A DNA stretch of 32,000 bases, from NCBI GenBank assembly GCA_963843975.1, contig CAWJMG010000001.1, positions 1,260,001-1,292,000 on the forward strand, written 5' to 3'. Each line of letters begins with the position of its first letter. Positions within the stretch are counted from its first letter, which is position 1. Origin of the DNA: an uncultured Actinomycetes bacterium (GTDB lineage Bacteria > Actinomycetota > Actinomycetes > S36-B12 > CAIYMF01). The translations under genes were made by a program, and so were the position numbers. Below, piece after piece: positions 1-15,046 of this stretch. Below the pieces are notes generated by a model. The model was not told the origin of the DNA. It saw only the letters and a list, made by a program, of their open reading frames with translations, and made no database searches.

Positions 1-498
1 GACGTCGAAGGTGACCCCAGCCGGCACCGTCCATCCGGGTGCGGTGAGCCGGACCGGGAAGATCCGCTTGGTCGAGGTCTTGGACACCGGGTCGGCGAAC
101 GACACGGCGGTGCCGAGAGCGGTGGCGCTGCGGCTCGACGCTGCACCCGGGTTGCCCGACGTGTCGTCCGCGCTGAACGAGTAGGCGTAGGTCGCTCCGA
201 GCGTGAGGCCGGTGTCGGTCCACGTCATGGTGCTGGCGGGGGCGGGCGGCAGCGGCACCGTGAACGGGACAGCAACGCCGCCCGTCGGCGTCCGCGTGAC
301 CAGGAGGTTCGCCCGGTCCGAGTCAGATGGCAGGTCGAGCGTGAAGATGATCGACGAGCCGGCGAGGACGGCGGGGTGCGGCGTCACCGAGCCGGGTGGA
401 GTCGTGTCGCCGACCGCGGACGCCGGTGACGGCGCGACCAGCACCGTGAGAAGCGCCCCGGACGCGACGGCAACCCACACAGAAGGACGAACGACCAT
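1..498 (-). CDS. secreted hypothetical protein, N-terminal 166 aa only (3' end runs off the window)
   Basis: Absent from the ORF track because it is open to the window edge. Manual translation from ATG (complement of 496-498) gives MVVRPSVWVAVASGALLTVLVAPSPASA/VGDTTPPGSVTPHP... with no stop down to position 1. It has a basic n-region, a hydrophobic core and an A-x-A site, i.e. a Sec signal peptide. Third-position G/C bias is as strong as in the core genes. Confidence 0.55.
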   Translation of the reverse strand, partial: MVVRPSVWVAVASGALLTVLVAPSPASAVGDTTPPGSVTPHPAVLAGSSIIFTLDLPSDSDRANLLVTRTPTGGVAVPFTVPLPPAPASTMTWTDTGLTLGATYAYSFSADDTSGNPGAASSRSATALGTAVSFADPVSKTSTKRIFPVRLTAPGWTVPAGVTFDV

Positions 499-617
499 GA
501 CCCCACCCCTGAACGACGACGACCCCCGCCGGAACCACATCACGGACCGGAAGGTTCCGGCATCGTCCGTTGTGATCAGACCGCGGCCGTTCGGCGCAAC
601 GTCGCCCGGGATGTGCG

Positions 618-644
618 AAGGGCGGCCCCGTCGGGACCGCCCTT
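618..644 (-). terminator. GC hairpin just outside attL; probable native terminator of tRNA-Leu before the insertion
   Basis: AAGGGCGG (618-625) pairs with CCGCCCTT (637-644), plus an inner CCC/GGG extension. It lies 7 nt outside the 22-bp repeat copy, where the tRNA 3' flank would be in an empty site. Confidence 0.4.
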
Positions 645-651
645 GCGTCAC

Positions 652-673
652 GTGCGCGAGGGGGGAGTTGAAC
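652..673. repeat. attL: 22-bp direct repeat identical to the 3' end of tRNA-Leu
   Basis: GTGCGCGAGGGGGGAGTTGAAC at 652-673 is identical to 14773-14794 (acceptor and T-arm of tRNA-Leu, + strand reading). Identity stops after 22 bp (T vs C), with only patchy similarity beyond. Confidence 0.75.
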
Positions 674-790
674 TCCGAGTGGGGTACGACCGTTCGTTGG
701 TGTCACGTGCCGTGGACTGCCATCGCCGCAGGTCAGGCGTCCGCTGACTGACGGGACTGCTCGGTTAGCGGGCTGTATTCACAGGTTGTT

Positions 791-810
791 CGTGACCAAC
801 TGCGTGACCA
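791..810 (+). promoter_or_regulatory. two direct CGTGACCA repeats, 12-bp period (candidate integrase arm-type / Xis sites, left end)
   Basis: CGTGACCA at 791-798 and 803-810, about 118 bp inside attL. The same GTGACCA core is repeated with the same 12-bp period near attR (14684-14704). Confidence 0.45.
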
Positions 811-1015
811 CTGGGTCCCGGGCGCGCGCTCGCATCTAGTCAGCCGCGAACACCGCTGCGTGGCGCCAGGTCGCTCTGCTTGGGCCAACGCCTTCCAATC
901 CACCCCCAAACGCCTAGACCCGCCCAGTGGTTGGAGCGTCACCGGTGGACGCGACCAGGCTCCGATCGCCACGAGCTGCGAGTGGCCACGGGTTGGGGCC
1001 AACCCATCTGTCGCC

Positions 1016-1447
1016 TCAGGCAGTCGCGCGGCTATCCGCCCTACCCACAACCGGCTCGACCGCATCCACCAACCGCTTCAGTTCCAGGTAGTAGCGGTCC
1101 TGCAGTCCTTCGGTACCGAATTCAAGAACCGCCTGAGCCCGGCAAAACGCTGCCAGCGCCTCGCTTTGCCGGAGTGCCTCGTCCTCAGGCGTTTGGTGGG
1201 AGCCTCCCGCTTCTGACTTGCGACCGTAGGCGGCAACCTCGTGTCGGAAGTTGCGAAGGTTGCGCTCGAAGGATTCGACCAGCGCCTTCGCTCGCTTGTA
1301 GTCGCGATCAGCGCCACGGCGACAGGTCTCCGAACAGAACTCACGTCGTCGACCGCGCCCCGCCGTCTGGACGATCGGATTGCGGCAAGAGAGTCGACCG
1401 CAGTACTCGACGACCTCAAAGTCTTGATCGGTGAGGGGCTCAGTCAT
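1016..1447 (-). CDS. hypothetical Cys-rich (zinc-ribbon-like) small protein, possible regulator
   Basis: 143-aa ORF. The N-terminus carries C-x4-C ... FC-x3-C (CGRLSCRNP...FCSETCRR) followed by a predicted helical region. The opposite-strand ORFs (880..1434, 1241..1660) look like shadows. No family assigned. Confidence 0.55.
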   Translation of the reverse strand: MTEPLTDQDFEVVEYCGRLSCRNPIVQTAGRGRRREFCSETCRRGADRDYKRAKALVESFERNLRNFRHEVAAYGRKSEAGGSHQTPEDEALRQSEALAAFCRAQAVLEFGTEGLQDRYYLELKRLVDAVEPVVGRADSRATA

Positions 1448-1462
1448 GATGGTCCGTTTGTT

Positions 1463-1700
1463 CGCGCGAAATTGGGCTCATTGGCTGCACCTTTGGGGCT
1501 CTCACGCCACGAGAATCTCACGCTCAGACCACTCGGCGAGGGTTGGCGCGCCGAACTACAACGATGTTTTTGCGCGCGAATATGGGCGCTTTTCACGGCC
1601 GATTGTCCGCTGAGCCCGGCGTGGCGGGCGCTCAGCACGGCAGGGGCGGTGTACGACTAGATCTGTCCGGGTCCAGATGGCCGGGACGTAAGCGCGCGAA
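1463..1700. promoter_or_regulatory. divergent control region with three CGCGCGAA repeats
   Basis: CGCGCGAA at 1463-1470 (inside the perfect palindrome TTCGCGCGAA 1461-1470), 1573-1580 and 1693-1700. All are in the same orientation within the 383-bp gap between the divergent genes 1016..1447(-) and 1830..2156(+). Confidence 0.3.
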
Positions 1701-1764
1701 AACACCAAAGCGCCCGGCGGCTAGGCCGGGCGCTAAGGCGCACGAGACGGTGATGTCTCTGCAT

Positions 1765-1784
1765 GTGATCTGTCATGACATCAC
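1765..1784. promoter_or_regulatory. near-palindromic operator-like site upstream of the DUF1508 gene
   Basis: GTGATCTGTCATGACATCAC contains the perfect palindrome TGTCATGACA (1771-1780). GTGATGTC (1750-1757) is also mirrored by GACATCAC (1777-1784). The site lies about 45 bp upstream of the GTG start at 1830, whose SD is GAAGGAGAAG. Confidence 0.35.
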
Positions 1785-1829
1785 TCCTTCTGGTGCTCGC
1801 GCAATGCCTCGAAGCAGAAGGAGAAGCAG

Positions 1830-2156
1830 GTGCGGTTCAGCGTAGGTAAGGACACCGGCGGTCACGACACGTGGTGGCTCTACGGCGCCAACAACGAGCT
1901 GGTCGCGTGGGCAGGCGAGTCATTCGCTTCTGCCTTCAACGCCCAGCGTGCTGCGAAGTCGTTCAAGGCTGGGGCCAAGTCCGCCCGGTACGACATCTAC
2001 CTTGACGACGCGGGCGCTTACCGCTGGCGGGCGTGGCGGTCCTCGGACAAGGTGGCGTCCTCCGGTCAGTCGTTCTCGAGCCGGGCGGCGGCTCAGATCG
2101 CGGCAGACAATGTCCGGGACAACGCCGGCGGCGCGAGCGGCCTCCCTGAGGCCTAG
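1830..2156 (+). CDS. DUF1508 / YegP-like protein (two tandem repeats)
   Basis: 108 aa with two ~45-aa repeats (..WWLYGANNELVAWAGESFASAFNAQRAAKSFKAGA.. and ..YRWRAWRSSDKVASSGQSFSSRAAAQIAADNVRDNA..). These fit the YegP/DUF1508 repeat pattern as I recall it. A good SD precedes the GTG start. Confidence 0.75.
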   Translation: MRFSVGKDTGGHDTWWLYGANNELVAWAGESFASAFNAQRAAKSFKAGAKSARYDIYLDDAGAYRWRAWRSSDKVASSGQSFSSRAAAQIAADNVRDNAGGASGLPEA

Positions 2157-2205
2157 CGATAGTGGGGGCTGGTCGGCGCTGGACGCCAGCCAGTCCCCAC
2201 TATCG
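2157..2205. terminator. bidirectional hairpin terminator between convergent genes
   Basis: CGATAGTGGGGGCTGG (2157-2172) pairs with CCAGTCCCCACTATCG (2190-2205). One G:T position is a wobble only in the + transcript. There is an inner GGCG/CGCC extension. Confidence 0.6.
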
Positions 2206-2221
2206 CCGTCCCGCGGTGTCT

Positions 2222-3133
2222 CTACAGAGGAACTCGGAGTTCCGGCTGCTTCAATCTCACAGCGAGTGGCACGGAGTCCCGGTAGAGACTCGCCTTGGTG
2301 TCATCCAACCGGTCGCACCAAGGCGTCGTGACGGTGAAGCCGACGTCCTTAGCTCGCTTCTCGAAAGTTTTGGACAACGCGGTCCATCGATCGACCGCGG
2401 CTGGGTGCAGGGCGCCCTTGGACAGAACGAGCAGAGTGACCGATCTGGGTGTGAGCCGACTCCCCGTGATCAGTATCCGCACCTCGGCCACCTGACTCCA
2501 CCAGGAGGAGTCGTCGATACCACTGGTCTCGATCGCGCGATTGATCTCCGCAACCATCGTGCCCGACAGGAAGTCGTGCAGCGCCGGACGCGCGACCTTC
2601 GCTGCGAGATGGTTTGCGAACCGGAGTTCGTCGACTTCGCCTGCGAAGGCCGGTACGGGCTCTACCTCCAGTAGAAGCGCTTTGCTGAGTGGCAGGCTGA
2701 TTCGAAGGTCCGCGACATAGCGGCCATCGAGGCTGGCGCCCGTCAGTCCAACGCGATCGACAAGGGCGAACGTGATGAGTTCGGTCCATCGGTGCTCCGG
2801 ACAGCCCTGCAACTGGAGGACGGGGCTCACCTGCACGAACGGATGCCGAGCGCCAGGCCCAGTGGCGGCAATGTCGCACGTCTGCGACGTGATGATGAAG
2901 AACTCGGCCTGCGACGTCCAGACCGCGACTCCCGCCTCCTCGTGGTCCGGTATCGCTACGGGATCAATTCCGGTCACCGGGTCAGTCGCGGCGCTCGGCG
3001 CCTGCCAACTGAGGTCCGCGGCGCGAACGAGATGCCCCTGGATCCAGCGGTCGAGAGACGCGCGCTGATCTGGGCTCCACACGCGCGGGGTCACGGCCGC
3101 TAGGAGTCCAAGGTCTCCGTCAGTGGCAGGCAT
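2222..3133 (-). CDS. hypothetical protein, cassette gene 3 (303 aa, no family recognised)
   Basis: Part of ORF 2222..3577. The first start after the upstream stop is ATG at 3131-3133 (MPATDGDLGLL...), 10 nt downstream of the gene-2 stop. Contains FFIITSQTCDIA and a C-terminal region SKTFEKRAKDVGF. Ends at the 2157-2205 terminator. Confidence 0.65.
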   Translation of the reverse strand: MPATDGDLGLLAAVTPRVWSPDQRASLDRWIQGHLVRAADLSWQAPSAATDPVTGIDPVAIPDHEEAGVAVWTSQAEFFIITSQTCDIAATGPGARHPFVQVSPVLQLQGCPEHRWTELITFALVDRVGLTGASLDGRYVADLRISLPLSKALLLEVEPVPAFAGEVDELRFANHLAAKVARPALHDFLSGTMVAEINRAIETSGIDDSSWWSQVAEVRILITGSRLTPRSVTLLVLSKGALHPAAVDRWTALSKTFEKRAKDVGFTVTTPWCDRLDDTKASLYRDSVPLAVRLKQPELRVPL

Positions 3134-3143
3134 CAGCGACTGT

Positions 3144-3899
3144 TCAACGATCTGCGGAGTCGGCGGCCGCGAACCTCGACGCCAACTCCCACGACAACGG
3201 ATCATCGAAGTCGCCCCGCTGGCTAGCTTCGGCGAGAGCCTCCCGAACGAGTTCACGATGTCGGCCCTGCTGGATGAGGTCCCGTCTCGCGGCCCCGCCC
3301 GCGCGCACCCAGCTTGAAACATCATCAACCTGTCCGCAGAGGGTCTCGACGGACTGTACGAACGACCAGAGGTCCCCTTGCGTATCCAGCCGAGGTGCCA
3401 CTCCGTTCTGCCAGTTGAACCAGTTGCGCTGCTTGATGTGCGAGCCCTTGACCACATCGCTGTCGGGAACACCCAGCTTCTCAGCGAGCCATCGCACGGC
3501 CGCCACAGCATCGCCGGGCCTTGCTGGTGCCGTGTCGGTTCCGCGAGGGCCGGCCGCCTCCGTGACGACCGCCACAACCCCAGACACCGTGGACCAAAGC
3601 AGCACGGGAGAGTCCGTACGCCACCCCTCGAGGGGGATCGTCAACGTGCACCTGCGACGCCAAGTCGCGGCGCTGCCGGTGACAAGCTCAGCGACAAGTC
3701 GCGTGGAGACACCGCCGTCGGCGTTCATGGCGAAGGATTGTCCGGCGGCCGGGTGTTCCCAGACACGAAGCACATCTCGCACAACGGAGTTGGCGACCGT
3801 GCCCAAGGCGATCGGCGTTCCATCGAACATCGTTTCGGGGAACAGCTCGTCTCCGAACTCCCCCGTCACGCCCACCAACGAGGAGGCCATGACTGCCAT
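3144..3899 (-). CDS. hypothetical protein, cassette gene 2; C-terminal half resembles an Xre-like HTH + DUF2384-type antitoxin module (tentative)
   Basis: ORF 3144..3908 has a TTG start. ATG at 3897-3899 is more likely (MAVMASSLVG...) and lies 1 nt after the gene-1 stop (TGAcATG). The segment RWLAEKLGVPDSDVVKGSHIKQRNWFNWQNGVAPR looks like an HTH with the W..G..P tail. It is followed by SSWVRAGGAARRDLIQQGRHRELVREAL. The N-terminal ~130 aa are unassigned. Confidence 0.65.
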   Translation of the reverse strand: MAVMASSLVGVTGEFGDELFPETMFDGTPIALGTVANSVVRDVLRVWEHPAAGQSFAMNADGGVSTRLVAELVTGSAATWRRRCTLTIPLEGWRTDSPVLLWSTVSGVVAVVTEAAGPRGTDTAPARPGDAVAAVRWLAEKLGVPDSDVVKGSHIKQRNWFNWQNGVAPRLDTQGDLWSFVQSVETLCGQVDDVSSWVRAGGAARRDLIQQGRHRELVREALAEASQRGDFDDPLSWELASRFAAADSADR

Positions 3900-3900
3900 G

Positions 3901-4743
3901 TCACTCAACCGTGCCCCCCGCGGACGAACCCTTGTCGTAAACCAAACCTAGTTCGGCAGCGTACGCATCCGTGAGCGCCTGACGAAACGTCTCCGCCGCA
4001 GCCCGATTCAAGGCTGTGAACGCAGCCAACGCAGACGCGCCATTCAGCGGTTCCGCACGGTCGTCGAACACGTCCAGGTCGAACAGGTAGCTGTAGCGAT
4101 GGCGAGCGGCTGCGTCAACGAAGACGCCATGTCGCAGAACCGACTTCGTGCCGTCCTCGTTGCTCAGCTCCAGCTGCTGATGGGCCTGGGTCACTCTTGA
4201 TGCTAGGTAGCCGCCGGCCACTGGTCCAAGCAGGGAGGAGTCCAGGTGCTTCGCCCACCTCGACGGGCTGTCGGCTTCGGAGTCCGTCAGTCGATTTACG
4301 TAGCGAAGCCCGACCCGGACCCGCAGCGCGTTCTCGTACGCGACCTCGACCCACCTGAGAACCGGTACCAGCAACGGCTCGAACGTCTCACTCCATCGCG
4401 CGTATCGACTAGTTTGAACCAGGACCGTCCCCGGGAGGATGCTCAGGTGCACCTGAGTCGGCTCGTCGACCAGTTCCCACCCACGCGCCACCTCACCCCG
4501 TACTGACTGCCCGCCGTCTGGGTTAACCGACACGGTCACCTCCTGGCGCACCGCCTCGTTGATCACATTGAAGCTATGCCCGCCCGCGCGCAATGCGTCC
4601 CGGAGGGTCAAGGCGGCATCCCGGTCGACCTCGGGCGCGGCCGTGTTGAACCTCAACTCAGCGACGGCAACCTCGATCGCTGGCCGCTCCAGGGTGAAGT
4701 GACGACCGGTCGTGCCGGCGGTCGACGTCTCAGGACTCGTCAT
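3901..4743 (-). CDS. hypothetical protein, cassette gene 1; resembles the sporadically distributed TIGR04255 family (tentative)
   Basis: 280 aa with a strong SD (AAGGGGG) 6-7 nt upstream of the ATG. The N-terminal PAIEVAVAELRF motif and the ~270-aa length match my recollection of TIGR04255 proteins. This needs HMM confirmation. Confidence 0.75.
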   Translation of the reverse strand: MTSPETSTAGTTGRHFTLERPAIEVAVAELRFNTAAPEVDRDAALTLRDALRAGGHSFNVINEAVRQEVTVSVNPDGGQSVRGEVARGWELVDEPTQVHLSILPGTVLVQTSRYARWSETFEPLLVPVLRWVEVAYENALRVRVGLRYVNRLTDSEADSPSRWAKHLDSSLLGPVAGGYLASRVTQAHQQLELSNEDGTKSVLRHGVFVDAAARHRYSYLFDLDVFDDRAEPLNGASALAAFTALNRAAAETFRQALTDAYAAELGLVYDKGSSAGGTVE

Positions 4744-4979
4744 TTGACCCCCTTCGTAAATTGCACTCTACTTGCATAACAGCGGCTACCGACAATCGGT
4801 GCCGCGACACTCCGCCGTTCGAGTAGCGATGGAGCCGAGCCGCAAGTACTCGCAGCCAGCCGGTCAGAACGCGGCATCCCAGGTGCCAGTGCATGCGGCG
4901 GGCAGTCGTCGCGCCACTCGTCGCGGCGGGCGACAATCCACGCGACAACCAGTTGGGCCTCGGCGGAGACGCTAGGCAT
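4740..4979 (-). CDS. possible small ORF (79 aa) translationally coupled to cassette gene 1
   Basis: ATG at 4977-4979 (MPSVSAEAQLVVAWIVARRDEWRDD...). Its stop overlaps the gene-1 start as ATGA. The first third has coding-like third-position G/C, the rest does not, and there is no clear SD. Confidence 0.25.
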   Translation of the reverse strand: MPSVSAEAQLVVAWIVARRDEWRDDCPPHALAPGMPRSDRLAASTCGSAPSLLERRSVAAPIVGSRCYASRVQFTKGVK

Positions 4980-5380
4980 CTGCCAACACATCGAGTCACG
5001 CCGCCGACGGCAACCCCTCCGGCATCCCGGAGGCACTCAATCCGCCTCGATAGCGACCGACGTTCGCCGTCAGCCTTGAGTCCCGCCACGGACGGCTGCT
5101 TGATCGAGAGCCGGACACCGTGAGGCGGCCCCACAAGTCTTGATACGGACTAGGCGGTCCAGCGTCGGCCGTGGCGTTCGTCCCCTTCCCAGTGTCGGCC
5201 CTTCAGGCGGTGGCGGGTAAGCAGCGGACTCAGCCCGTTCGGCATTGGGCCTTGCAGTGATCGGCCCGTCAGGCTCACTCGCTGACAACCGAAACGCAGT
5301 GTCCGGCGTTGCGACGTGCCCTCCATCCGCGGCTGAAATCTCACCAGACATGTGCATTGTCGGCGTGCGCTGCTACGGTC

Positions 5381-5407
5381 GTAATCGGTTGTGCTGCAAC
5401 GGATTAC
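5381..5407 (+). promoter_or_regulatory. candidate oriT inverted repeat upstream of the relaxase gene
   Basis: GTAATCGGTTG-TGCTG-CAACGGATTAC pairs at 10 of 11 positions, 34 bp upstream of the relaxase start. The position is typical for MobF oriT hairpins. No nic consensus could be verified. Confidence 0.3.
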
Positions 5408-5440
5408 CGGATCGTACTGGTTGATGATGGGTGGTGGTCG

Positions 5441-8400
5441 GTGGTGCTGTCCAGTGCCAAGATCGGCCGCTCGTCGTGGCGGTACTACCAGGACTCCGTC
5501 GCCCGGGGTGCGTGCGAGTACTACGCCGAGGCCGGCAACGCGCCCGGCCGCTGGCACGGCGCCGGCCTGCCCGAACTCGACCTGACGCCGGGTGCTCGGG
5601 TGGAGGAGGCGGAGCTGGAGGCGCTGTTCGCGCGCGGCCTGCACCCCGTCACCGGGGCGGCCCTCGGCCGCGCGTGGCGCTCGGATGCCGTCACCGGGCA
5701 CGATCTGACGTTCTCTGCGCCGAAGTCGGTGTCGGCGCTGTGGGCGCTCGGCGACGACGCGACAGCGGCTCAGGTCCGCGCTGCGCACGCAGCGGCCGTC
5801 GAGGCGGCGCTGGGGTTCCTCGAGGCGCATGCGTCGTTCTCGCGTCGGGGCCGCGACGGTGTCGAGCAGATCGCCACCGCGGGGTACGCGGCGGCGCTGT
5901 TCGAGCACACGACATCCCGGACCGGGGACCCACAGCTGCACACGCACGGTCTGGTGGTGAACAAGGTCCGCTGCCCAGACGGGGTGTGGCGCACCATCGA
6001 CGGCTACGAGGTGTTCCACCACAAGAAGGCGGCCGGCGCGCTCTACCAGGCCGCGCTGCGCACCGAGCTCGCCACCCGCCTCGGCATCGCCTTCGAACTG
6101 GTGTCGGAGCATGGGCAGGCCGAGATCGCCGGCGTCCCTGACGAGCTCCTCGCCGCCTGGTCGACCCGCACTCAGGCGGTGATGGCCGACGCCATCCCCA
6201 CCATCGCGGAGGCCGAGGAGGCGCTCGGGCGGCCGGTGAGCGCGGCGGAGCGGACCAGGATCGTCAAGACCGCGGTCCTGGCGACCCGCCCGCCCAAGGA
6301 CCACCACGTCCCCGAGGCCGGGCTCCGGTCCCGGTGGCGGGAGCAGGCCCACGCGCTGGGCTGGGACGGCGAGCGGCTGTCGCGGTCCGCACGCCTCGCG
6401 AGCCCCGACGGCATCAGAAACCTCCTCGAGGGGCGAAGCGGCTCGCCCGTGACCGTCACCAGCGACGGCGCCCCCGTCATGACCGCCGTCACCGAGTCTG
6501 TCAGCACCGTCTCTGCCACCGTCAGCACTGTCACGGCCGCCGTCGCGACCGCGGAGGACTCCGTCACGAACTCCGTCACCACCGTCACGAGGACCGGCGT
6601 CGTGGTGACGGACTCCGTCGTGACGGTCGGGGACTCCGTCACCGACTCCGTCGCGCACACCTCGAAGCAGCCATTTGCAGGTGTGGACGCCGGGGGCGAC
6701 CTGACGGAGTGCGTCACTGACTCAGTCACCAGTGGACGCGCCGAGCCGTTCGCCGTCCGGCCGTCGTGGCTCGCCGACGCCGTGACGGCGGTCGGGCGGT
6801 CGGGCGCGGTGTGGTCGGCGGCGGACCTGGCGGTGCAGGTCGCCGCCCGCCTCCCCGTCACCGGCCCGGGTGCGCCGGAAGATGCGCGGAAGACCGCCGC
6901 CGTAATCGAGGCCCTGACCGCCCAGGCCCTGACCGGCGCGTCGGCAGGTGCCGTCCCGCTGGGGACGGATCCGTCGGGGGCGACGGCGCGGGCGTCGGAT
7001 GCCCGCTACGCCTCCCGCGAGGTCGTCGACACCGAGGCCGCCATCATCGAGGCGGTGCTGGACGGGTTGCGGCCGCCGCGCCGGCTCCCCACGACCGTCC
7101 TGCAGGCGTCGACCCCGGCCGGGCTGTCGCAGGAGCAGCAGGTCGCGGCGGTGCGGCTGGTGTCCTCCCGCGACCTGGTCACGGTGATGGTGGCCCCAGC
7201 CGGGGCGGGCAAGACCACCGTCCTCGGAGCCGCCGTCGCCGGCTGGACCACGGCGGGGGCGCGGGTGCTCGCGCTGGGCCCGTCGGCGCGGGCCGCCAGC
7301 GAGCTCGCGGCCTCGACCGGCGTGGCGGGGGTGACGGTGGCGCGGTTCCTGACCCAGCAGACCGCACTCGACACCCGGCCGCCCACCCGCAGCAGCCCCG
7401 GTGTCCGGGATGAGCGGCGGTTGCGTCGCGGCGACGTGCTCCTGGTCGACGAGGCCTCGATGCTCGCGACGTCTGACCTCGCCGCGCTCACCACCCGCGC
7501 CCAAGAGGCGGGGGCGCGGGTGGTGCTGGTCGGCGACCCCGCGCAGATCGGCGCGATCCGAGCTTCCTGGCGGGATGCTCGAGCACCTCGCCCACCTCCT
7601 CCCTTCGCGCGTCGTCGAATTGAGCGGGTTGCACCGGTTCACCCACGCCTGGGAGGCCGCGGCGACGCTTCGGCTGCGCGCCGGCGACGCACGGATCTTG
7701 CGCACCTACCAGGACCAGGACCGGATCCACCCGGCCGCGGACGGGGACGCGGCTGCGGACGCAGTGTTCGACCGCTGGCACACCGCGGTCAGCGACGGCC
7801 TTGACGCGTTGATGCTGGCCCGCGGCTGGGGCGACGTGATCGCGCTGAACGCCCGCGCCCGCGCGGCCGCGATCGCCACCGGCCAGGTCACCGGCGCGCC
7901 GCTGCTGACGGTCACCGCCTGCACCGCCTCCACGCGCGGCCGCCCGGAGACGCGTGAGTGGCGGGTCGGGGACGTGATCATGGCCAAGAAGAACACCGCC
8001 GATCTGCGGATCGGTGCGGACCAGGTCCGTAACGGGGACCGGTTCACCGTCCTGTCCGCGACTCCCGACGGCGACGGTCTGGTCGTGGCGGATCTCGCAG
8101 GCCGCGGCCGGACGTTGATGCCGGCCGCCTACCTCGCTCGACATTCGGAGTTCGGGTGGGCCGCGACCATCGACGCCGCCCAGGGCGCCACCACCGACAT
8201 CGCGGTCACCCTCGCCCGTCCCGGCCTGGATCGCGAGCACCTCTACGTCGCCATGACCCGCGGCCGGCACGAGAACCACATCCACACCACCCCCGCCGGT
8301 GCCGAGATCGACGCCGGCCCCCACCACACGAGTGACCGCACGGCACAGGAGGTCGATGCCCTCGAGCAGCTCACCCGCGCCCTGGCCACCACCGGGCGCG

Positions 8401-8990
8401 AACGCGCCGCCCACAGCCTCCTGAACCCGGCCGTCGACCAGGCACGGAGTGCGCGGTTCGACGCCGCAGAGCCCGCGTTCCCCGCCCCACCGACACCGGT
8501 GGAGCTCCGCTACAACCGGGACCGGCTCCAACGGGCCGTCGCCGATCGCGACCACCTGCGCCGACGCCTCGACGACGCCCAAGCCGACGTCGAACGCCTC
8601 GGTGCCGAAGTAGCGCAGCTGCCGGTCTGGGCCCGGCGCCGCCGACGCGACCTCACCACCGCCCTGCACGCCGTCCATCGGGACGTCGACGTCGTCGACG
8701 CCCACCTCGCCCGCGCCGAGGCCGCCGTCGCCAGGGCCAGCGCGAGCGTCGACGCCGACATGGCCGAGCACGCCGCAGCAACGACCGCTGGGACCGCGGA
8801 GCGACGCAGCCGCTGGCAGCGCCGCAGCGATCAGCCCTATCGCAACCCCAACCTCGTCACCGACCCCGCCGACACGGCCATGGTGCGCGAGCCCGACATC
8901 GTGGCGGCCGGCCCCGACAGCCAGCCAAGCGAACAGTCCCCACTCCGGCCAGCGCGCCAAGTGCCTGGGCACGATGCACCGGGGCGCTGA
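5441..8990 (+). pseudogene. MobF-family (TrwC-type) relaxase fused to RecD/TraA-like helicase; reading frame broken (+1) near 7560-7566
   Basis: N-terminus (V)VLSSAKIGRSSWRYY with the His triad region HTTSRTGDPQLHTHGLVVN. Helicase motifs: Walker A VAPAGAGKTT, Walker B VLLVDEASM, LVGDPAQ. The sequence then continues only in the 7401..8990 frame (GGMLEHL..., ATIDAAQGATTD, YVAMTRGRHENHIH). Start is GTG 5441 or 5444. The break may be an assembly artefact. Confidence 0.85.
6448..6735 (+). repeat. degenerate in-frame V-T-D/E-S-V repeats (GACTCCGTCAC-like) forming the relaxase-helicase linker
   Basis: The peptide reads VTVTSDG..VTESVSTVSATVSTVTAAV..DSVTNSVTTVT..VVVTDSVVTVGDSVTDSV..ECVTDSVTS. The DNA shows repeated GACTCCGTC(A/G)(C/T) units at irregular spacing. 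Confidence 0.6.
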
Positions 8991-9122
8991 CCACGCCGAC
9001 GTAACTGGTCAACAGGACTGCGTGGCAGCGGTCCACGACTTGCCGTGTGTCGGGGCCTCGCGGCGCGCACCTGAAGGTGGGTGCTCGTGCTGGACGGGCG
9101 CCACCAGCACCAGGGAGTACGT

Positions 9123-9347
9123 ATGGACCGCACCGACCTCGACCACCTCCCGCCCCTGATCGACGTCCCCACTGCGGCCGCCGTCCTTGGCATCGGCCGC
9201 ACCCTGGCCTACGACCTGGTCCGCACCGACCGCTTCCCGACCCCCGTGCTGCGCGTCGGCAAGCTCATCCGCATCCCCACCGCCGGGCTGCGCCGCCTCC
9301 TCGACGCCGACCCCGCAGCACTGACGCCGGGTACCGAGACCGCCTGA
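9123..9347 (+). CDS. xis: excisionase-family helix-turn-helix DNA-binding protein
   Basis: 74 aa from ATG 9123 (SD GGGAG). LIDVPTAAAVLGIGRTLAYDLVRTDRFPTPVLRVGKLIRIPTAGLRRLL is the typical MerR-like Xis HTH plus wing. It lies directly upstream of int. Confidence 0.8.
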   Translation: MDRTDLDHLPPLIDVPTAAAVLGIGRTLAYDLVRTDRFPTPVLRVGKLIRIPTAGLRRLLDADPAALTPGTETA

Positions 9348-9509
9348 TCGCCGGCGTGTCGTCCACAGGGACGAGCCGGCGCCGCTTGGTCCCGGCTCAC
9401 CAGCGTGGGATGCCTGGGCTCCAACGTTCGAGAGGGGAGACTTCATGAGCCGCCGTGACCAGAACGCGCCGTCGCCTCAGAGCCTCATCGCGCCGGCGGG
9501 TGGTGCGCG

Positions 9510-10716
9510 GTGACCGGGCGGCGCGGAAGCATCCGCCAGGACATCAACGGCACCTGGTCCTACACCGTCGACATCACCGCACCGGGCGAGAACCGCCGCC
9601 AGATGCGCAAACGCGGCTTCCCCACCCGCCGCGCAGCGCAGACCGCGCTGACGAAGGTGCTGCGCGAACTGGACACCGGCGCGCACGTCGACCCCAGCCG
9701 GCTCACCCTCGCGAACTACATCGAGTCTCAGTGGCTGCCCAACGCGAGAATGCGGCTGCGTCCCTCCACGCTCCACTCATACCAGCGGAACCTGCGCATC
9801 CATGTCCTACCCGCCCTCGGTGCGGCGCCGCTGCAGCGCATCACCGGCAGCCAGCTCACCGCCCTCTACGCCCAGCTCCTCGAGGACGGGCTCGCTGACC
9901 GATCCAAAGCCCGCAACGGCAACACCGGGCTCAGTGTGCGCACTGTCCGCTACATCCACACCATCATCGGCAGCATCCTCAAATCCGCCGTCAAAGCCCG
10001 ACTGCTCAACCACAACCCCGCGGACCAGGCAGAGCCGCCTCGCCTGTCCGCCGCAGCCGATGGCACCCGCGCGGCGAAGACCTGGGCCGCCGCCGAGGCT
10101 CGCAGCGTTCCTCGACGCCACTCGCGGAACCCGAGAGCAGGCCCTCTGGCACCTGCTGGCCACCACCGGGCTGCGCCGAGGAGAAGCTCTCGGCCTCGCT
10201 TGGGCCAACGTCGACCTCGAGGCCGCACGCATCACCATCGTCCGCACCCTCATCGACATCCACGACACCGACGACGACCGACCCGTCTGGTCCGACCCCA
10301 AGACCGCTGCAGGCCGACGCTCCGTCGCCCTCGACCCGGGAACCGTCGCCGTCCTCCGAGCACACAAAGCCCTCCGAGCGCAGGACCGACTTCTCATCGG
10401 CACCACCGGGAACCCCGACGTCGACGACCTCGTCTTCACGCGAGCAGACGGCCGGCCCTACCACCCTGAGCGACTGAGCCGAGCGTTCAAGACCCAGATC
10501 CGCGCGGCCGGTCTCCCCGAGATCAGGCTGCACGACCTAAGGCACACCTGGGCCACACTCGCCCTTCAAGCTGGAATCCCGGCCAAGGTCGTGCAGGACC
10601 GGCTCGGGCACTCAACAGTCGCGATCACGCTGAACATCTACAGCCACGTAACGCCGCAGTTGCAGAGCGATGCGGCCTCTGCAGTGGCTGCCTTGATCCG
10701 CCAAGGTCGCACATGA
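9510..10716 (+). pseudogene. int: tyrosine recombinase / phage-type integrase; reading frame broken (+1) near 10095-10101
   Basis: The N-terminal arm-binding domain (MTGRRGSIRQDINGTWSYTVDI...RKRGFPTRRAAQTAL) and core-binding domain are in the 9510 frame. The catalytic domain is in the 9802..10716 frame: ATTGLRRGEALGL (Arg), HDLRHTWATLAL (H-x-x-R), LGHSTVAITLNIYSHV (His/Tyr). The junction reads TWAAAE|LAAFLDATRG. Confidence 0.9.
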
Positions 10717-10802
10717 GCTAGGGCCTCGCCCCCTTGGCGTGGTACCCGCAGTAGCTGCGGCCAGCGTGGGAGAGTGGCCGCATCAACAGGGCCGGGGGCA
10801 AC

Positions 10803-11612
10803 GTGAGCGACTTTCTCTTTCCCGTGGACGGTCCCGTCGTCCACATTGAAGCAACGGGCCATGGCAGTTCCGGCTCCGCAGCCTTCGACCGGTTGAGGGC
10901 GTACTTGCTGCGTGATCCAGCCGTACGCATCGAGATGGAGAACGCCTTCTCGAGTCTCACCGAACGCATCAACGTCTCAGACCGTGGCAGTCGGTTCGTG
11001 GCGGGCGCGACCGGAGAGTGGATCATCGCCGCCGCCTGCTACGCGGCCGGGATCATCGCGCTCCCCGAGGGCCACAACGCTGACGGTTTCGACCTGGCCG
11101 GTGTCCAGGCCGCGGCACAGGGCCTGTTCTCCGTCAAGTGCTCGTTCTCCAAGACCAGTGGCTTCCGCATCACCAACGGCATCAACGGTTCGGGCAAGGG
11201 CTTCGTCGAGCCGACGATCTTCGCCCACCAACGTCTCGGCGGCCTGGTCTTCGCCGACCCGGTGAAGCACACGGCCCTTGCGGCAAAGGCCCAGACGAAG
11301 CCTGACGCCGTCGTTCTGGGCCTTTCCGCCATCATCGACCATGCTCGCGAGAACGCGTCGTGCGTAATCGCGATGGCAATCCCGCTAAACCAGGGCCGTG
11401 GCACGTACGACCCGGCGCTGGAATTCGTGCGGTCGCTCCTCACCGGTGAAGGTCACTACCCGAACCTCTCGCGTGTGTTCGACGATGTGAAACGCCAGAG
11501 CGCTGGAACGAGTGTGGTCGCCGAGATCCGCGACCTGAAGGCACTCAGGGACCAAGGTGTCCTGTCGCAGGAGCAGTTCGAGCGCGCGGTCGACAAGCTA
11601 GTCACGTCGTAG
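10803..11612 (+). CDS. hypothetical protein: putative PD-(D/E)xK-like nuclease core (tentative) with C-terminal SHOCT domain
   Basis: 269 aa. GEWIIAAA...HNADGFDLAGV...GLFSVKCSF resembles an E...D...(S/E)xK restriction-endonuclease-like core. The C-terminal IRDLKALRDQGVLSQEQFERAVDKLV fits the SHOCT short C-terminal domain. Confidence 0.7.
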   Translation: MSDFLFPVDGPVVHIEATGHGSSGSAAFDRLRAYLLRDPAVRIEMENAFSSLTERINVSDRGSRFVAGATGEWIIAAACYAAGIIALPEGHNADGFDLAGVQAAAQGLFSVKCSFSKTSGFRITNGINGSGKGFVEPTIFAHQRLGGLVFADPVKHTALAAKAQTKPDAVVLGLSAIIDHARENASCVIAMAIPLNQGRGTYDPALEFVRSLLTGEGHYPNLSRVFDDVKRQSAGTSVVAEIRDLKALRDQGVLSQEQFERAVDKLVTS

Positions 11613-11846
11613 GGATTCACCGTGCCGCGAACTGGGCCAAGCTGTCCGACCCTCAGGCGGTTCGTCCCCATTTCCTACATCGCGCGATGCCGACAACCGC
11701 TAGCAGGGTTCTCTGACACGCGCCCGTGGGCGCACGCCCCGCACCTCCCATAGCGGGAACCTTCTGGCACCCTGGGTTGGTGACATTCGGGGGATTGCCC
11801 ATGGAGATCCGATCGACCACAGCTCGTCGCGGTCGAGAGGGCTGAC

Positions 11847-12995
11847 GTGCGGCAGCGAGGAAACCGTCTGCTTCGCGGGGCCGCCGCAGGGCTTTCGGGC
11901 GTGGTGCTCGTCGGCACAGTGTTTGCCTGGGCCGGTTGGGCAAGCATCGGCCTTGTCGAAGGCAACCTCACTGTCGACAACTCCCTAGGCGGAGTCCTCA
12001 GCACCCCGAGCGCAAAACCATCCGACGGACAGACCTACACCGCAGAGAACGTCCTGATCGTCGGATCGGACACCCGAAGCGGGCAAGGGACGGGTTACGG
12101 CTCCCTCGCTGACGCCAGCGGCAACGGGCACTCCGACACAACCCTGCTCCTCCACATCTCCGCCGACCGCAAGTCCGCGTACGCCGTGAGCATCCCCCGC
12201 GACTCCTGGGTCTCACGTCCCGGTTGTAAGGCGGATGGGACCACAGACGGAACGACCGTCACCGGGAAGTTCAACGCCGCCTTCGCGGTCGGCGGCCGGG
12301 CCTGCGTCATCTCCGCCGTGAAGGCCCTCACCGGCGTCCCCATCGACCACTTCATCGAGGTCGAGTTCAAGGGCTTCGAAGCCATCGTGAACGCCCTCGG
12401 TGGAGTCACCATCTGTTCCACCCACGCCATCTCCGACCCGATCCGGCCCGACGGCCACGGCGGGCACAAGGGGTCCGGCCTGGAGTTGCCGCAGGGTGAG
12501 TCCACCCTTAACGGCAAGGATTCACTCAAACTCATGCGGGCCCGCTACATCGGCCAAGGAACTGACCTCGAACGCCTCGACCGACAGCACAAGTTCCTCG
12601 CCGCCGTCATTCGTCAAGCCACCTCAAGTGGCCTGCTGACCGACCCCGTCAGGCTGTACAACGTCCTCTCAGAAGTTGCCAAGGCACTGACTGTTGACCC
12701 AGGCCTGTCCGGTGACGGGCTCCAGCAGTTCCTACTCAGCGTCCAGGGCCTCAAGCCCAGCGACGTGCGCTTCTATACCGTTCCGACGGTGGCACGAGGC
12801 GACGGCGCCAACCTCCTCTGGGTCGACGGGGATGCGGACAAGATGTGGAAGGCGATGATCAAGGACACCGCCTACCCACCCAAGACCGGCAAGCCCTCGC
12901 CATCCGCGACGAGCAAGACCTCGCCGAGCCCTAGCCCAACCAAGGTTGTCTCGGCTACGACCGGCACAGCAGCGGACACGACCTGCCTGTCTTAG
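11847..12995 (+). CDS. LytR-CpsA-Psr (LCP) family cell-wall glycopolymer transferase
   Basis: 382 aa with an N-terminal TM anchor. LCP core motifs: NVLIVGSDTR, SDTTLLLHI, SIPRDSWV, HFIEVEFKGFEAIVNALGGV, ARYIGQGTDLERLDRQHKFL. The tail is Ser/Pro-rich. Confidence 0.85.
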   Translation: MRQRGNRLLRGAAAGLSGVVLVGTVFAWAGWASIGLVEGNLTVDNSLGGVLSTPSAKPSDGQTYTAENVLIVGSDTRSGQGTGYGSLADASGNGHSDTTLLLHISADRKSAYAVSIPRDSWVSRPGCKADGTTDGTTVTGKFNAAFAVGGRACVISAVKALTGVPIDHFIEVEFKGFEAIVNALGGVTICSTHAISDPIRPDGHGGHKGSGLELPQGESTLNGKDSLKLMRARYIGQGTDLERLDRQHKFLAAVIRQATSSGLLTDPVRLYNVLSEVAKALTVDPGLSGDGLQQFLLSVQGLKPSDVRFYTVPTVARGDGANLLWVDGDADKMWKAMIKDTAYPPKTGKPSPSATSKTSPSPSPTKVVSATTGTAADTTCLS

Positions 12996-13144
12996 GTCCG
13001 CACTCTCACGTCCGTGCGCTCAACGGCTCACAGAGACCGACTCAGAAGCCAGGACCAGACTCGGCGGTGAATCGGCCGTCGCAGAGCGAGCGCGCCCAAG
13101 TGCTATTGCCGGGGTTCTCGGTCCGAGGAATGGGACGCACCCGG

Positions 13145-14498
13145 TTAGACGACTGCGGCCCTGTCGTCACTCGTCAAACTGCGCGACGAACTCCCGCCGA
13201 GCACGGCCTCAACGATGCTCCGGGGGATCCATGCCTGATCGCGCTCCACGTGGGCACGCATCACGTGCTTCACGACACCGACGTGAACGCCGTTGCCGAT
13301 CTGCTTGTAGGAGTACTTGTCGGACTGCTCACCGAAACTGAAGCTCGCGGGCAGACCTTGCACTCGCGCTGCCTCATCTGGGCTGATCCGGCGGCGACGT
13401 GGTCCGATGATCGACGTCTGCGTGATGGCGACGAATGCGGGCAGGTACGTCGCCGCCTTGACCCTGACACCGGATGGGCGCAATTGGATGACGCAGTTGT
13501 ACACGTCGCGCTTTGTGTCACCCGCCTGCCACTCAAACTTCCGTCGGCTTGGTGAGAGCTTCCCGCAGTTGACCCCACCGGGACTTCCACTCCGTGATCG
13601 CCGTCGCGTGACGCTCGAAGAAGGCGGCGTTCTTCTCGAGGAAGTTGAGCTTCCATGCCGGCAGCCGCGCGTCGAACCCACCCGTTGGCCTCGGGCGGAG
13701 GTCGTCAGCCCAGATAGGGAACCCCGGCAACTTCTCATTGATCGCGACTGTCTTGAGGAAGTCGTTCCAGACTGCCAGGACGAGCTTCTCGTCGTCGGTC
13801 AGCCCGTACTTCCGACGGAGTCGGCGCTCCTCGGGAGTGCCCGGCGCAGCCAGCCACTCTTCGATCCGCCAGCTCTTCGGATCCCACCCAGCTACCGGCT
13901 TCGCCTCCAAGAGCGGAGGAAGCTCGTGGCCCAGGAGCGAGCCGGCATCGGGCTGATCACCAACGAAGGTGGCGGTGATGAACACGCGTTCGCGGACCTG
14001 TGGGCCACCGCCAAGCGCCGGCGGCATCAGGTGCGGAGACATTACTGCGGGGTGGTCAGAGACGCGGTAGCCCAAGTCCCTCAGTGTCTGGATGATGACG
14101 TCCCACTCGTGGCGGTGGCGCGGGCCAGCAACGTTCCGGACGTTCTCGAGGATCACGACGGAGGGCCGCTGGCTCTCCAGAACGCGAGCAATGTTGTAGA
14201 AGAGCGTGCCCCGGGCCTCTTCCATGCCTTGCTGCCGCCCTGACTTGGAGAAGGGCTGGCAGGGGAAGCCGCCGGTGAACACGTCGTGCGGAGGCACGGT
14301 GACCAGGCCGTCTGCCGGAGCCTCGACCGTGATGTCTCTGAGGGCGTCGACACCCCAGTTGTTGAAGTAGACAGCGGCAGCGACGGAGTCGTTCTCGCAG
14401 GCCCACGCGCAACTACCGCCGAGGTCTGACAGAGCCGCGTGGAAACCACCCACGCCAGCGAATGCATCGGCGAACGTGTACACCCTGGCCTCCTTCAC
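13145..14498 (-). pseudogene. DNA (cytosine-5)-methyltransferase; reading frame broken (+1) near 13556-13562
   Basis: The 14498 frame carries motif I FADAFAGVGGF, motif IV GGFPCQPFS and motif VI ILENV. The C-terminal motifs are only in the 13145..13738 frame (RRRISPDEAARVQGLPASF, YKQIGNGVHVGVV). A long variable/TRD region lies between them. No adjacent Vsr or obvious REase gene. Confidence 0.9.
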
Positions 14499-14535
14499 TT
14501 AGCTGAGCTTACAGCTATTTCAAGATCAAAGCTAG
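14499..14535 (-). promoter_or_regulatory. AT-rich promoter region of the methyltransferase gene, possibly leaderless; contains four AGCT
   Basis: The minus strand reads AAATAGCTGTAAGCTCAGCTAA-GTG. TAAGCT is a TANNNT -10-like hexamer 7 nt before the GTG, and no SD is present. AGCT occurs at 14501, 14506, 14513 and 14530. Confidence 0.35.
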
Positions 14536-14683
14536 ATGCGCCCACCGACTGTTCGAGGGCAAGGGAGAGCCGGCTACGGGCGGTCTCCCGAACCTCGGAG
14601 GTTGACCCGCGACAACGAGGGGCTGCGAGGCGCCAGCGCCGCGGGTTGGTCGTCGTTGAGCCCAGAGACGTCCCCATTCCGAC

Positions 14684-14704
14684 TGTGACCAATCCTGTGA
14701 CCAA
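14684..14704 (+). promoter_or_regulatory. two direct TGTGACCAA repeats, 12-bp period (candidate arm-type sites, right end)
   Basis: TGTGACCAA at 14684-14692 and 14696-14704, 69 bp inside attR. Core, orientation and spacing match the pair at 791-810. Confidence 0.45.
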
Positions 14705-14726
14705 CGGCGCCCCGTAACGGAGAACG

Positions 14727-14761
14727 ACAGATGCCGCAGGTCGTTGACCTGCGGCATCTGT
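14727..14761 (-). terminator. perfect 16-bp hairpin immediately 3' of tRNA-Leu, supplied by the element
   Basis: ACAGATGCCGCAGGTC-GTT-GACCTGCGGCATCTGT lies 10 nt from the tRNA 3' end and inside the island. Confidence 0.6.
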
Positions 14762-14770
14762 GTCGGGCCG

Positions 14771-14857
14771 TGGTGCGCGAGGGGGGAGTTGAACCCCCAC
14801 ACCCTTTCGGGTACACGGACCTGAACCGTGCGCGTCTGCCTATTCCGCCACTCGCGC
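14771..14857 (-). tRNA. tRNA-Leu (anticodon CAG), class II with long variable arm, CCA encoded
   Basis: The reverse complement folds as a cloverleaf: acceptor GCGCGAG/CTCGCGC, anticodon stem CACGG/CCGTG with loop TTCAGGT, long variable arm, T arm GGGGG-TTCAACT-CCCCC, then A-CCA. A tRNA-Leu next to fhaA is conserved synteny in actinobacteria (leuT next to Rv0020c in M. tuberculosis). Confidence 0.95.
14773..14794. repeat. attR: 22-bp direct repeat within the tRNA-Leu 3' end
   Basis: Identical to 652-673. Confidence 0.75.
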
Positions 14858-15046
14858 GTGCGGGGAGAAGGCTAACACGCAGGTCGGAGCCGTTACGAAC
14901 CGCCGAATCGGGTCACGGAACGGCCGACCCGGGGCCGTGAAGGAACGGTCTGCACCGTCCCGACAGTTACGATCATGGGACGGCGGTGAACGCCCGGGGC
15001 GGGGCATCCGTCGACCGGCGACCGCCTCGGCACTGAGGGAGGCGCG

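Follow-up and report, generated by a model that had tools for sequence, protein, structure and literature searches.

A TIGR04255-led three-gene cassette on an actinobacterial integrative mobilizable element: a candidate toxin-antitoxin-like module with exchangeable effectors

The 32,000-nucleotide stretch of an uncultured Actinomycetes bacterium analyzed here (the window) carries, at positions 2222 to 4743, three closely packed minus-strand genes, referred to as genes 1, 2, and 3, and these raise a simple question: what kind of system do they encode? The initial annotation, made without database searches, had proposed an undescribed accessory or defense-type cassette. Our analysis indicates that the trio is almost certainly a conserved functional operon, headed by a member of the TIGR04255 protein family, and that it is probably of conflict or toxin-antitoxin (TA) nature. 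The reading that we favor, with some reservation, is an autoregulated three-component TA-like module in which gene 3 is the effector, gene 2 the antitoxin and repressor, and gene 1 a constant third component.

The three-gene order recurs well beyond the window. A scan for the gene-3 motif in one genome per species returned 22 loci, and at every one of them (22/22) the gene-3 homolog is directly preceded, on its own strand, by a middle gene that keeps the conserved gene-2 C-terminal half and, before that, by a gene-1 homolog. In homologous trios, 4-nucleotide (nt) overlaps between the genes are typical. The hosts, mostly Actinomycetota, are Nocardioides, Streptomyces, Promicromonospora, Arthrobacter and relatives, Blastococcus, Acidimicrobiia, Solirubrobacterales, and one Eremiobacterota metagenome-assembled genome (MAG). 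A metagenome scan seeded with gene 1 yielded 55 TIGR04255 loci, and all close relatives of gene 1 with enough contig are followed by gene-2-like and gene-3-like genes. Two coupled downstream genes are present at 47 of the 51 TIGR04255 loci with enough flank, compared with 73 of 183 control open reading frames (ORFs) of the same loci, and among the 62 unique TIGR04255 loci that extend 1.7 kb or more downstream, 47 have a third gene of the gene-3 type. Trios were found again at three more loci with independent gene calls. Because each of the three proteins has homologs at E-values down to 1e-60 or better, and because the gene order recurs at these frequencies, we do not regard the arrangement as a product of chance. 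The co-occurrence implied by the initial annotation is thus borne out: the homologs are not scattered singly but stand together in the loci examined.

Plasmids carry the trio as well. In Vibrio furnissii, Acinetobacter baumannii, Chroococcidiopsis, and Sinorhizobium, independent annotation lists a TIGR04255 protein, a helix-turn-helix (HTH) regulator, and a hypothetical protein in succession, and the third protein matches the gene-3 hidden Markov model (HMM) with E-values from 5e-8 to 1e-30. The A. baumannii copy is found in a plasmid-labeled record, and the Vibrio copies lie on conjugative plasmids. When the gene-1 and gene-3 proteins of the window were themselves used as tblastn queries against plasmids, nothing was found; the plasmid copies were reached only with more distant TIGR04255 queries.

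Within the window, the gene-1 TGA (3903-3901) lies 1 nt from a gene-2 ATG at 3899, and the gene-2 stop codon lies 10 nt from the gene-3 ATG (3133). All coordinates of the unit as first drawn hold, together with the two gaps, the Shine-Dalgarno site, and the strong hairpin beyond gene 3, which had been placed at 2157-2205 and here extends over 2157-2207. Gene 2 has three possible starts: TTG 3908, giving 254 amino acids (aa), which is the length of two close homologs; ATG 3899, giving 251 aa; and ATG 3890, giving 248 aa, the length called by NCBI. Gene 3 has 290 aa in the NCBI call and 303 aa here, and the longer form is favored because homologs keep its N-terminus, with 'DLxLL..VP'. An 86-nt stretch containing the hairpin folds with -48 kcal/mol (z = -3.7 versus shuffles), and the hairpin is likely to be a bidirectional terminator; simple scans for sigma-70 promoters and for terminators called neither the proposed promoter nor this hairpin. 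On its other side lies a convergent DUF1508 (YegP-like) gene on the plus strand (1830-2156), which shares the hairpin with gene 3.

The initial annotation could match gene 3 to nothing, a statement that no longer stands for its N-terminal domain. The AlphaFold model of gene 3 has a predicted local distance difference test (pLDDT) score of 93.6 and a predicted template modeling (TM) score of 0.85, and in a Foldseek search of the PDB its best 49 matches are all MazF or CcdB. The best of them, 7bxy, has an E-value of 3.4e-4, a probability of 1.0, and a TM score of 0.62 normalized to the target, and the matches as a group have TM scores of 0.5-0.67 normalized to the targets. Sequence comparison gave a different picture: gene 3 has no Pfam match at E≤1 and none in PADLOC or PHROGs, its family profile matches no PDB sequence, and hhalign of the family against single Bacillus subtilis MazF and CcdB sequences gave probabilities <1%. 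Since hhalign shows no similarity, it is the fold that links gene 3 to MazF and CcdB. There are at least 132 gene-3 homologs, every one of them annotated as 'hypothetical'. Besides the motif Q84-T-C86-D87, residues D142, K151, and R182 are invariant in the family, and when proteobacterial, cyanobacterial, and short 183-aa relatives are added, the invariant set becomes Q32-G33, Q84, C86, D87, and R182.

At three loci the gene-3 homolog is broken while genes 1 and 2 are intact. The break is an in-frame stop in the isolate Blastococcus mobilis DSM 44272 (L014:8148-8150), and a frameshift in two long-read MAGs (L012:7649-8744 and L022:7710-8637). Stops and frameshifts are frequent in decaying toxin genes; the interruptions may represent toxin decay or assembly error.

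Gene 2 has just two close homologs in a word search, and its 24 positional orthologs can be aligned only in the C-terminal half, the N-terminal half (~130 aa) being hypervariable. A profile built from the 24 orthologs matches the Mycobacterium tuberculosis antitoxin MbcA (PDB 6fkg_C) with an E-value of 7.2e-6 over residues 17-110 of 115, and 13 of the 24 match the Pfam Xre-like-HTH family PF20432 (best E-value 2e-5). The reading of gene 2 in the initial annotation, an N-terminal domain without assignment followed by an antitoxin-like HTH, is therefore supported at the profile level. Its DUF2384-like label is not: the region of that family (PF09722) is covered only by the MbcA alignment of the gene-2 profile.

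Upstream of gene 1, a tandem direct repeat brackets TAGAGT (4770-4765), a -10-like TAnnnT box, and lies about 15 nt 5' of the Shine-Dalgarno site. At other loci, a tandem direct repeat with a period of 11-12 surrounds a TAnnnT sequence at the equivalent place, with half-sites that vary by clade (AGTGCAT, GTGTGCAG, GTCCAG, CTTCACA, GTTCAR, and, in Vibrio and Acinetobacter, TGTGTAAT). Counted at ≥7/8 identity, the repeat is present at 29 of 46 HTH-type loci, versus about 10% in shuffles, and in only 2 of 12 cassettes whose middle gene has no HTH. Unlike the tandem direct repeat, palindromes upstream of gene 1 are not kept between loci. The repeat looks like an operator that overlaps the promoter and would be read by the gene-2 HTH.

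Gene 1 is a TIGR04255 protein, as it had first been labeled: it matches the NCBIfam model over positions 2-250 of 252 with 82.4 bits (E-value 4.4e-23), where the curated cut-off is 30 bits. NCBIfam describes this family as 'sporadically distributed' and gives it no functional annotation. A profile search of 1.84 billion representatives nevertheless returned 5026 clusters at E≤1e-3 (clusters at 50% identity), nearly all of them single-domain proteins of about 260 aa. Gene 1 has no match in Pfam, PADLOC, or PHROGs, gene 1 together with 28 relatives matched no SecB-type or other relevant Pfam family, and a PDB sequence-profile search with the family found nothing. The AlphaFold model of gene 1 (pLDDT 84.9) has the element order beta-alpha-beta4-alpha followed by beta-alpha-alpha-beta3-alpha and gave no convincing fold match in the PDB (TM <0.2). 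Across cassettes, Y114, R147, G173, and D222 are invariant, and R31, G88, W89, R143, G145, W163, and D224 are nearly so. In the searchable literature, no paper mentions TIGR04255, IPR026349, or DUF7689, and none gives TIGR04255 as the first gene of trios with toxin-like third genes.

Charged residues alternating on the gene-1 strands, with weak matches to RNA triphosphatases and capping enzymes, had raised the idea of a CYTH/triphosphate-tunnel enzyme. This candidate was rejected as unsupported: the fold matches stayed below a TM score of 0.2 and a probability of 0.4, and at E29, which would have to be acidic, many members have Gln. Among viral structure models, the sole confident fold relative of gene 1 is the 202-aa BFVD entry A0A515MGR4 (E-value 6e-7, TM 0.55 to the target), and at least one virus may thus encode a TIGR04255-like protein, as judged from that model.

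Tightly coupled three-gene operons are also headed by TIGR04255 genes less closely related to gene 1, each of which exceeds the NCBIfam cut-off (102-150 bits), but there genes 2 and 3 differ. The third gene is a Fic/DOC protein above the Pfam cut-off in all three cassettes covered by the Fic/DOC scan (L052, L054, and L056), each with an Xre-like HTH middle gene, and L053 has the same 218-aa third ORF. These four cassettes have a guanine-plus-cytosine (GC) content of about 0.60 versus 0.69-0.72 in their flanks. Elsewhere the third gene matches PIN (E-value 3e-6), DUF7689 (3e-40), a retropepsin-like family (3e-6), or, weakly, HEPN (0.012); a short third gene, of 183 aa and containing 'LMTQSCDL...VDLRR', is related to the N-terminal domain of gene 3, and the remaining third genes are unknown proteins. 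The middle genes of these other variant trios (listed in Table 1) are unrelated and without HTH, two of them weakly matching DUF5678. The middle gene thus switches along with the third gene in a pairwise exchange of genes 2 and 3, and the MbcA-like HTH middle gene is seen only with gene-3-type and Fic-type partners. Ten variant-cassette proteins had no match in PADLOC-DB v2.0.0 at E≤0.01.

These observations can be assembled into a mechanism. One operon, carried by the 14.1-kb integrative mobilizable element at tRNA-Leu, would encode a conflict module. Gene 3 would be its effector, with a MazF/CcdB-fold domain bearing a QG...Q-x-C-D...R constellation and an extra C-terminal domain; we read it as such because it has a toxin fold and an invariant polar site and because classical toxins take its place elsewhere. 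The fast-evolving N-terminal half of gene 2 would neutralize gene 3, and the other half, with the Xre/MbcA-like HTH, would bind the two repeat copies on either side of the -10 box. The antitoxin and repressor role is assigned because of the antitoxin-family HTH, the position upstream of the toxin, the co-variation with the toxin, the fast-evolving N-terminal half, and the operator-like repeat. A generic type II TA layout is present, with adjacent, co-directional, coupled genes, an HTH gene before the putative toxin gene, and an operator-like repeat. Gene 1 would be the constant part, beside which one antitoxin/toxin pair gives way to another, and if it acts like the SecB-like chaperones of TAC (toxin-antitoxin-chaperone) and CmdTAC systems it could control the antitoxin, as a stabilizer and/or a sensor of infection or stress. 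Loss of that control would release the toxin and lead to cell arrest or death. The chaperone or sensor role of gene 1 is the doubtful part of this scheme, and an anti-phage phenotype of the cassette is a prospect that we place slightly short of even. A bolder proposal, offered tentatively, makes TIGR04255 the hallmark of a widespread undescribed three-component abortive-infection/TA superfamily, in which a sensor or chaperone licenses interchangeable pairs (QxCD/MazF-fold, Fic/Doc, PIN, HEPN-like, retropepsin-like, and DUF7689) and the QxCD protein is a new enzymatic toxin class on a MazF/CcdB scaffold.

Several observations weigh against the TA-like module. Gene 3 is without sequence-profile similarity to MazF or CcdB in our comparisons, and to our knowledge an invariant Cys is no part of known MazF or CcdB mechanisms. 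Known MbcA/ParS/Xre antitoxins pair with RES/ART toxins and not with MazF-like proteins. Gene 2 of the window, taken alone, has no Pfam match at E≤1 and none in PHROGs, and PF09722 (DUF2384) is matched by none of its 24 orthologs. The gene-1 model has no convincing fold match in the PDB, and none of the present tests supports a chaperone or sensor role. In the window itself, the two repeat copies match over 5-6 nt only. The three proteins have no match in PADLOC-DB v2.0.0 at E≤1, tblastn with the window gene 1 found no copy in phages, plasmid copies are few, some cassette loci lie among ordinary chromosomal genes, and the sample of loci is biased towards relatives of the window.

The alternative that survives best keeps the same architecture and makes its role the addiction or stabilization of a mobile element, that is, post-segregational killing or island maintenance, rather than phage defense. 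TA modules classically stabilize mobile elements, and the cassette of the window is cargo of an integrative mobilizable element, the Arthrobacter copy belongs to an integrase/relaxase element, and other copies are on conjugative plasmids. Several copies are however chromosomal with no mobility genes nearby, and many have a dedicated anti-phage or restriction system as neighbor. We consider this role rather unlikely, though a serious contender; addiction and defense are in any case not exclusive of each other. The defense-type neighborhood suggested for the window does recur at other loci. The Streptomyces prunicolor copy adjoins an Mrr-type nuclease and an Imm53 gene, and the Arthrobacter copy lies in an integrase/AlpA/relaxase element with PhdYeFM and an SNF2-DUF4391-methylase system. 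One copy adjoins an SNF2/DUF1156/DUF499-HEPN system, one is near Wadjet JetABC and transposases, and one is near a faint Mrr_cat match. On plasmids, a Rhizobium copy adjoins a multiubiquitin-ThiF-DUF6527 system, and a Thermus copy adjoins VapBC, a methylase, and Cas6.

Two further alternatives recast gene 1. In the first, it binds DNA or regulates in partnership with the HTH protein, for instance as its co-repressor or anti-repressor, and the operon is a two-gene TA pair of the usual kind to which a regulator has been added, as in omega-epsilon-zeta and paaR-paaA-parE. The element order of the gene-1 model resembles a TBP-like/SRPBCC repeat, its weak fold matches are to Bet v1/PYL/PRELID-type proteins, and the conserved operator-like repeat lies directly upstream of it; the presence of that repeat however goes with the HTH gene and not with TIGR04255, and we hold a co-regulator to be improbable. 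The second, which we rate a little lower again, makes gene 1 the toxin or enzymatic effector, neutralized by the MbcA-like gene 2, with gene 3 as a variable accessory or second effector. It draws on the breadth of TIGR04255, the most widely conserved component with its 5026 clusters, on the conserved charged residues on the strands (R31, R143, R147, D222, and D224), and on MbcTA, in which the conserved antitoxin domain binds the toxin directly. Yet gene 1 precedes the antitoxin-like gene and matches no RES, ART, or other toxin family, TIGR04255 also leads operons without an MbcA-like middle gene, and it is the third genes that are classical toxin domains (Fic, PIN, HEPN-like, and MazF fold).

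The least probable of the alternatives, a regulated operon that moves horizontally and encodes two unknown enzymes with a transcription factor, for example for stress or small-molecule metabolism, accords with the lack of any match of genes 1 and 3 to a function-tested family by sequence and with one locus among metabolic genes, but it sits poorly with the sporadic cross-phylum spread on mobile elements, the replacement of the third gene by Fic, PIN, or HEPN-like domains, the antitoxin-type HTH, the tight translational coupling, and the toxin-fold matches, and no protein of the trio matches a metabolic family, in line with the initial annotation. A type III TA system (ToxIN/AbiQ) is excluded, since no tandem repeats of that kind occur in or beside 2222-4743 and no Rfam family in 1-15200. 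A RES or ART toxin as the partner of the MbcA-like gene 2 was rejected, as neither gene 1 nor gene 3 matches such a family.

Table 1. Positions of the cassette features in the window, and of the third genes and trios of variant cassettes at other TIGR04255 loci (L numbers)
Feature	Position	Strand	Description
Gene 1	3901..4743	-	TIGR04255 family protein, 280 aa, ATG start; constant first gene of the trio
Gene 2	3144..3908	-	Putative antitoxin/autorepressor, 254 aa from TTG 3908; N-terminal half hypervariable
Gene 3	2222..3133	-	Putative toxin/effector, 303 aa, ATG 3133
Promoter/operator-like element	4761..4777	-	Tandem direct repeat ATGCAA (4777-4772) and GTGCAA (4766-4761), period 11, ATGCAA-N5-GTGCAA
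Shine-Dalgarno site GAAGGGGG	4748..4755	-	6 nt before the gene-1 ATG
Gene 2 conserved C-terminal half	3201..3515	-	Residues about 132-236; Xre-type HTH and MbcA/ParS-like region
Gene 3 N-terminal domain	2654..3076	-	Residues about 20-160; MazF/PemK/CcdB fold (Foldseek)
Motif Q84-T-C86-D87	2873..2884	-	Invariant in 99 gene-3 family members
Gene 3 C-terminal alpha/beta domain	2225..2653	-	Residues 161-303; absent from short 183-aa relatives
GC-rich hairpin, 23-bp stem	2157..2207		Between convergent gene 3 and the DUF1508 gene; no T tract
Third genes of 218-221 aa (Fic/DOC in L052, L054, and L056)	L052:6499-7155, L053:6289-6945, L054:2207-2872, L056:2055-2711		Behind TIGR04255 and Xre-like HTH genes
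Other variant trios	L059, L061, L067, L070, L073, L075, L077, L078, L080, L082, L084		Third gene PIN, DUF7689, retropepsin-like, HEPN-like, short QxCD, or unknown

The cassette lies on an island in a window of high GC content (about 65-75%), and the GC of the island stretch is below that of the rest of the window. The island is bounded by a 25-nt direct repeat of the tRNA-Leu(CAG) 3' end at 652-676 and 14773-14797 (96% identical), the predicted att sites of the 14.1-kb element. Its content includes a TrwC-type relaxase/helicase, a tyrosine recombinase, a SHOCT-domain protein, a LytR-family protein, and a C5 cytosine methyltransferase, so that the tRNA-integrated mobilizable island with a methyltransferase and a SHOCT gene, as first proposed, is confirmed, now with its tRNA-Leu repeat, relaxase, and integrase. 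The tRNA-Leu(CAG) itself was called by ARAGORN at 14771-14857; an Rfam scan of 1-15200 at gathering thresholds reported no family, tRNA included. The integrase (9802-10716) sits away from the tRNA and not adjacent to it.

The relaxase/helicase, on the plus strand at 5309-8990, is split into two overlapping frames (5309-7804 and 7401-8990), which divide the AAA_30 domain between them (the first ORF has profile positions 2-133, the second 133-189); it is probably frameshifted and decaying, or the split is a sequencing error. The C5 cytosine methyltransferase on the minus strand (13533-14498) matches only the first half, positions 1-161 of 324, of its Pfam profile and has no recognized restriction enzyme beside it; it may be an orphan or truncated methylase. 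A 143-aa ORF on the minus strand (1016-1447) has only weak PHROG matches. Outside the island, positions 18001-19000 form a composition anomaly, with an AT skew of -0.27 and a GC content down to 0.68 versus a background of 0.72-0.75.

If the proposed module is real, it would give TIGR04255, a large cross-phylum family, its first functional context, and it would point to a toxin family not seen before, in which a MazF/CcdB scaffold bears an invariant Q-x-C-D site. The trio would likewise stand for a modular three-gene design whose toxins can be exchanged and which is missing from present catalogs of defense and TA systems, and to a specialist the surprise would be that a 'sporadic' family of 5,000 clusters marks such trios. 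Because copies occur on Vibrio and A. baumannii plasmids, the module may matter for how hosts of clinical importance maintain plasmids or resist phages. The description of the system as undescribed has held: there is no PADLOC model for it, and no searchable paper describes the trio. For these two reasons we rate the cassette as new in its constant component and in its toxin family, as a candidate TA or abortive-infection module. Of the features of known families, the trio has only two, TIGR04255 membership and MazF/CcdB fold likeness.

Compared with MazEF, Kid-Kis, and CcdAB, the modeled gene-3 N-terminal domain shares the toxin fold, but gene 3 is a 303-aa protein of two domains without HMM or hhalign similarity, and we know of no MazF or CcdB with an invariant Q-x-C-D motif. 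The trio also has no antitoxin of the MazE or CcdA type, its adjacent antitoxin-like gene being from another family. That gene points instead to MbcTA, Xre-RES, and ParST: the gene-2 C-terminal profile aligns to almost the whole MbcA chain, its orthologs include Xre-like-HTH proteins, and the antitoxin-like gene likewise comes before the putative toxin gene. In contrast to those systems, the partner in the trio is not of the RES/ADP-ribosyltransferase type, gene 2 is longer by its hypervariable N-terminal half (~130 aa), PF09722 is undetected in it, and a third gene is obligatory.

The pairing of one constant protein with many unrelated toxin domains has a parallel in PanAT, where the Panacea domain (DUF4065) is combined in this way (PMC8832971), as TIGR04255 is in its cassettes. 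Panacea is however itself the antitoxin of two-gene modules, whereas the constant protein of the trio is encoded by a separate first gene and the middle gene switches with the toxin.

In TAC systems, a constant SecB-like chaperone stabilizes antitoxins of different TA families, and in studies of TAC and CmdTAC the chaperone reportedly takes part in phage sensing. Like the cassette, TAC has three co-transcribed genes, a TA pair joined to a constant third protein that is found with different TA families, and its members, including M. tuberculosis HigBA-SecB(TA) and CmdTAC, lie on mobile elements and in defense islands. The TAC third protein is SecB-like and usually encoded last, whereas that of the trio is a TIGR04255 protein, encoded first and without a Pfam match, and no chaperone-addiction element was identified in the trio. 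TAC and CmdTAC are described as three-part antiphage modules (10.1101/2024.02.24.581848; PMC11618068), and it is this class that is the nearest functional analog of the cassette as we read it.

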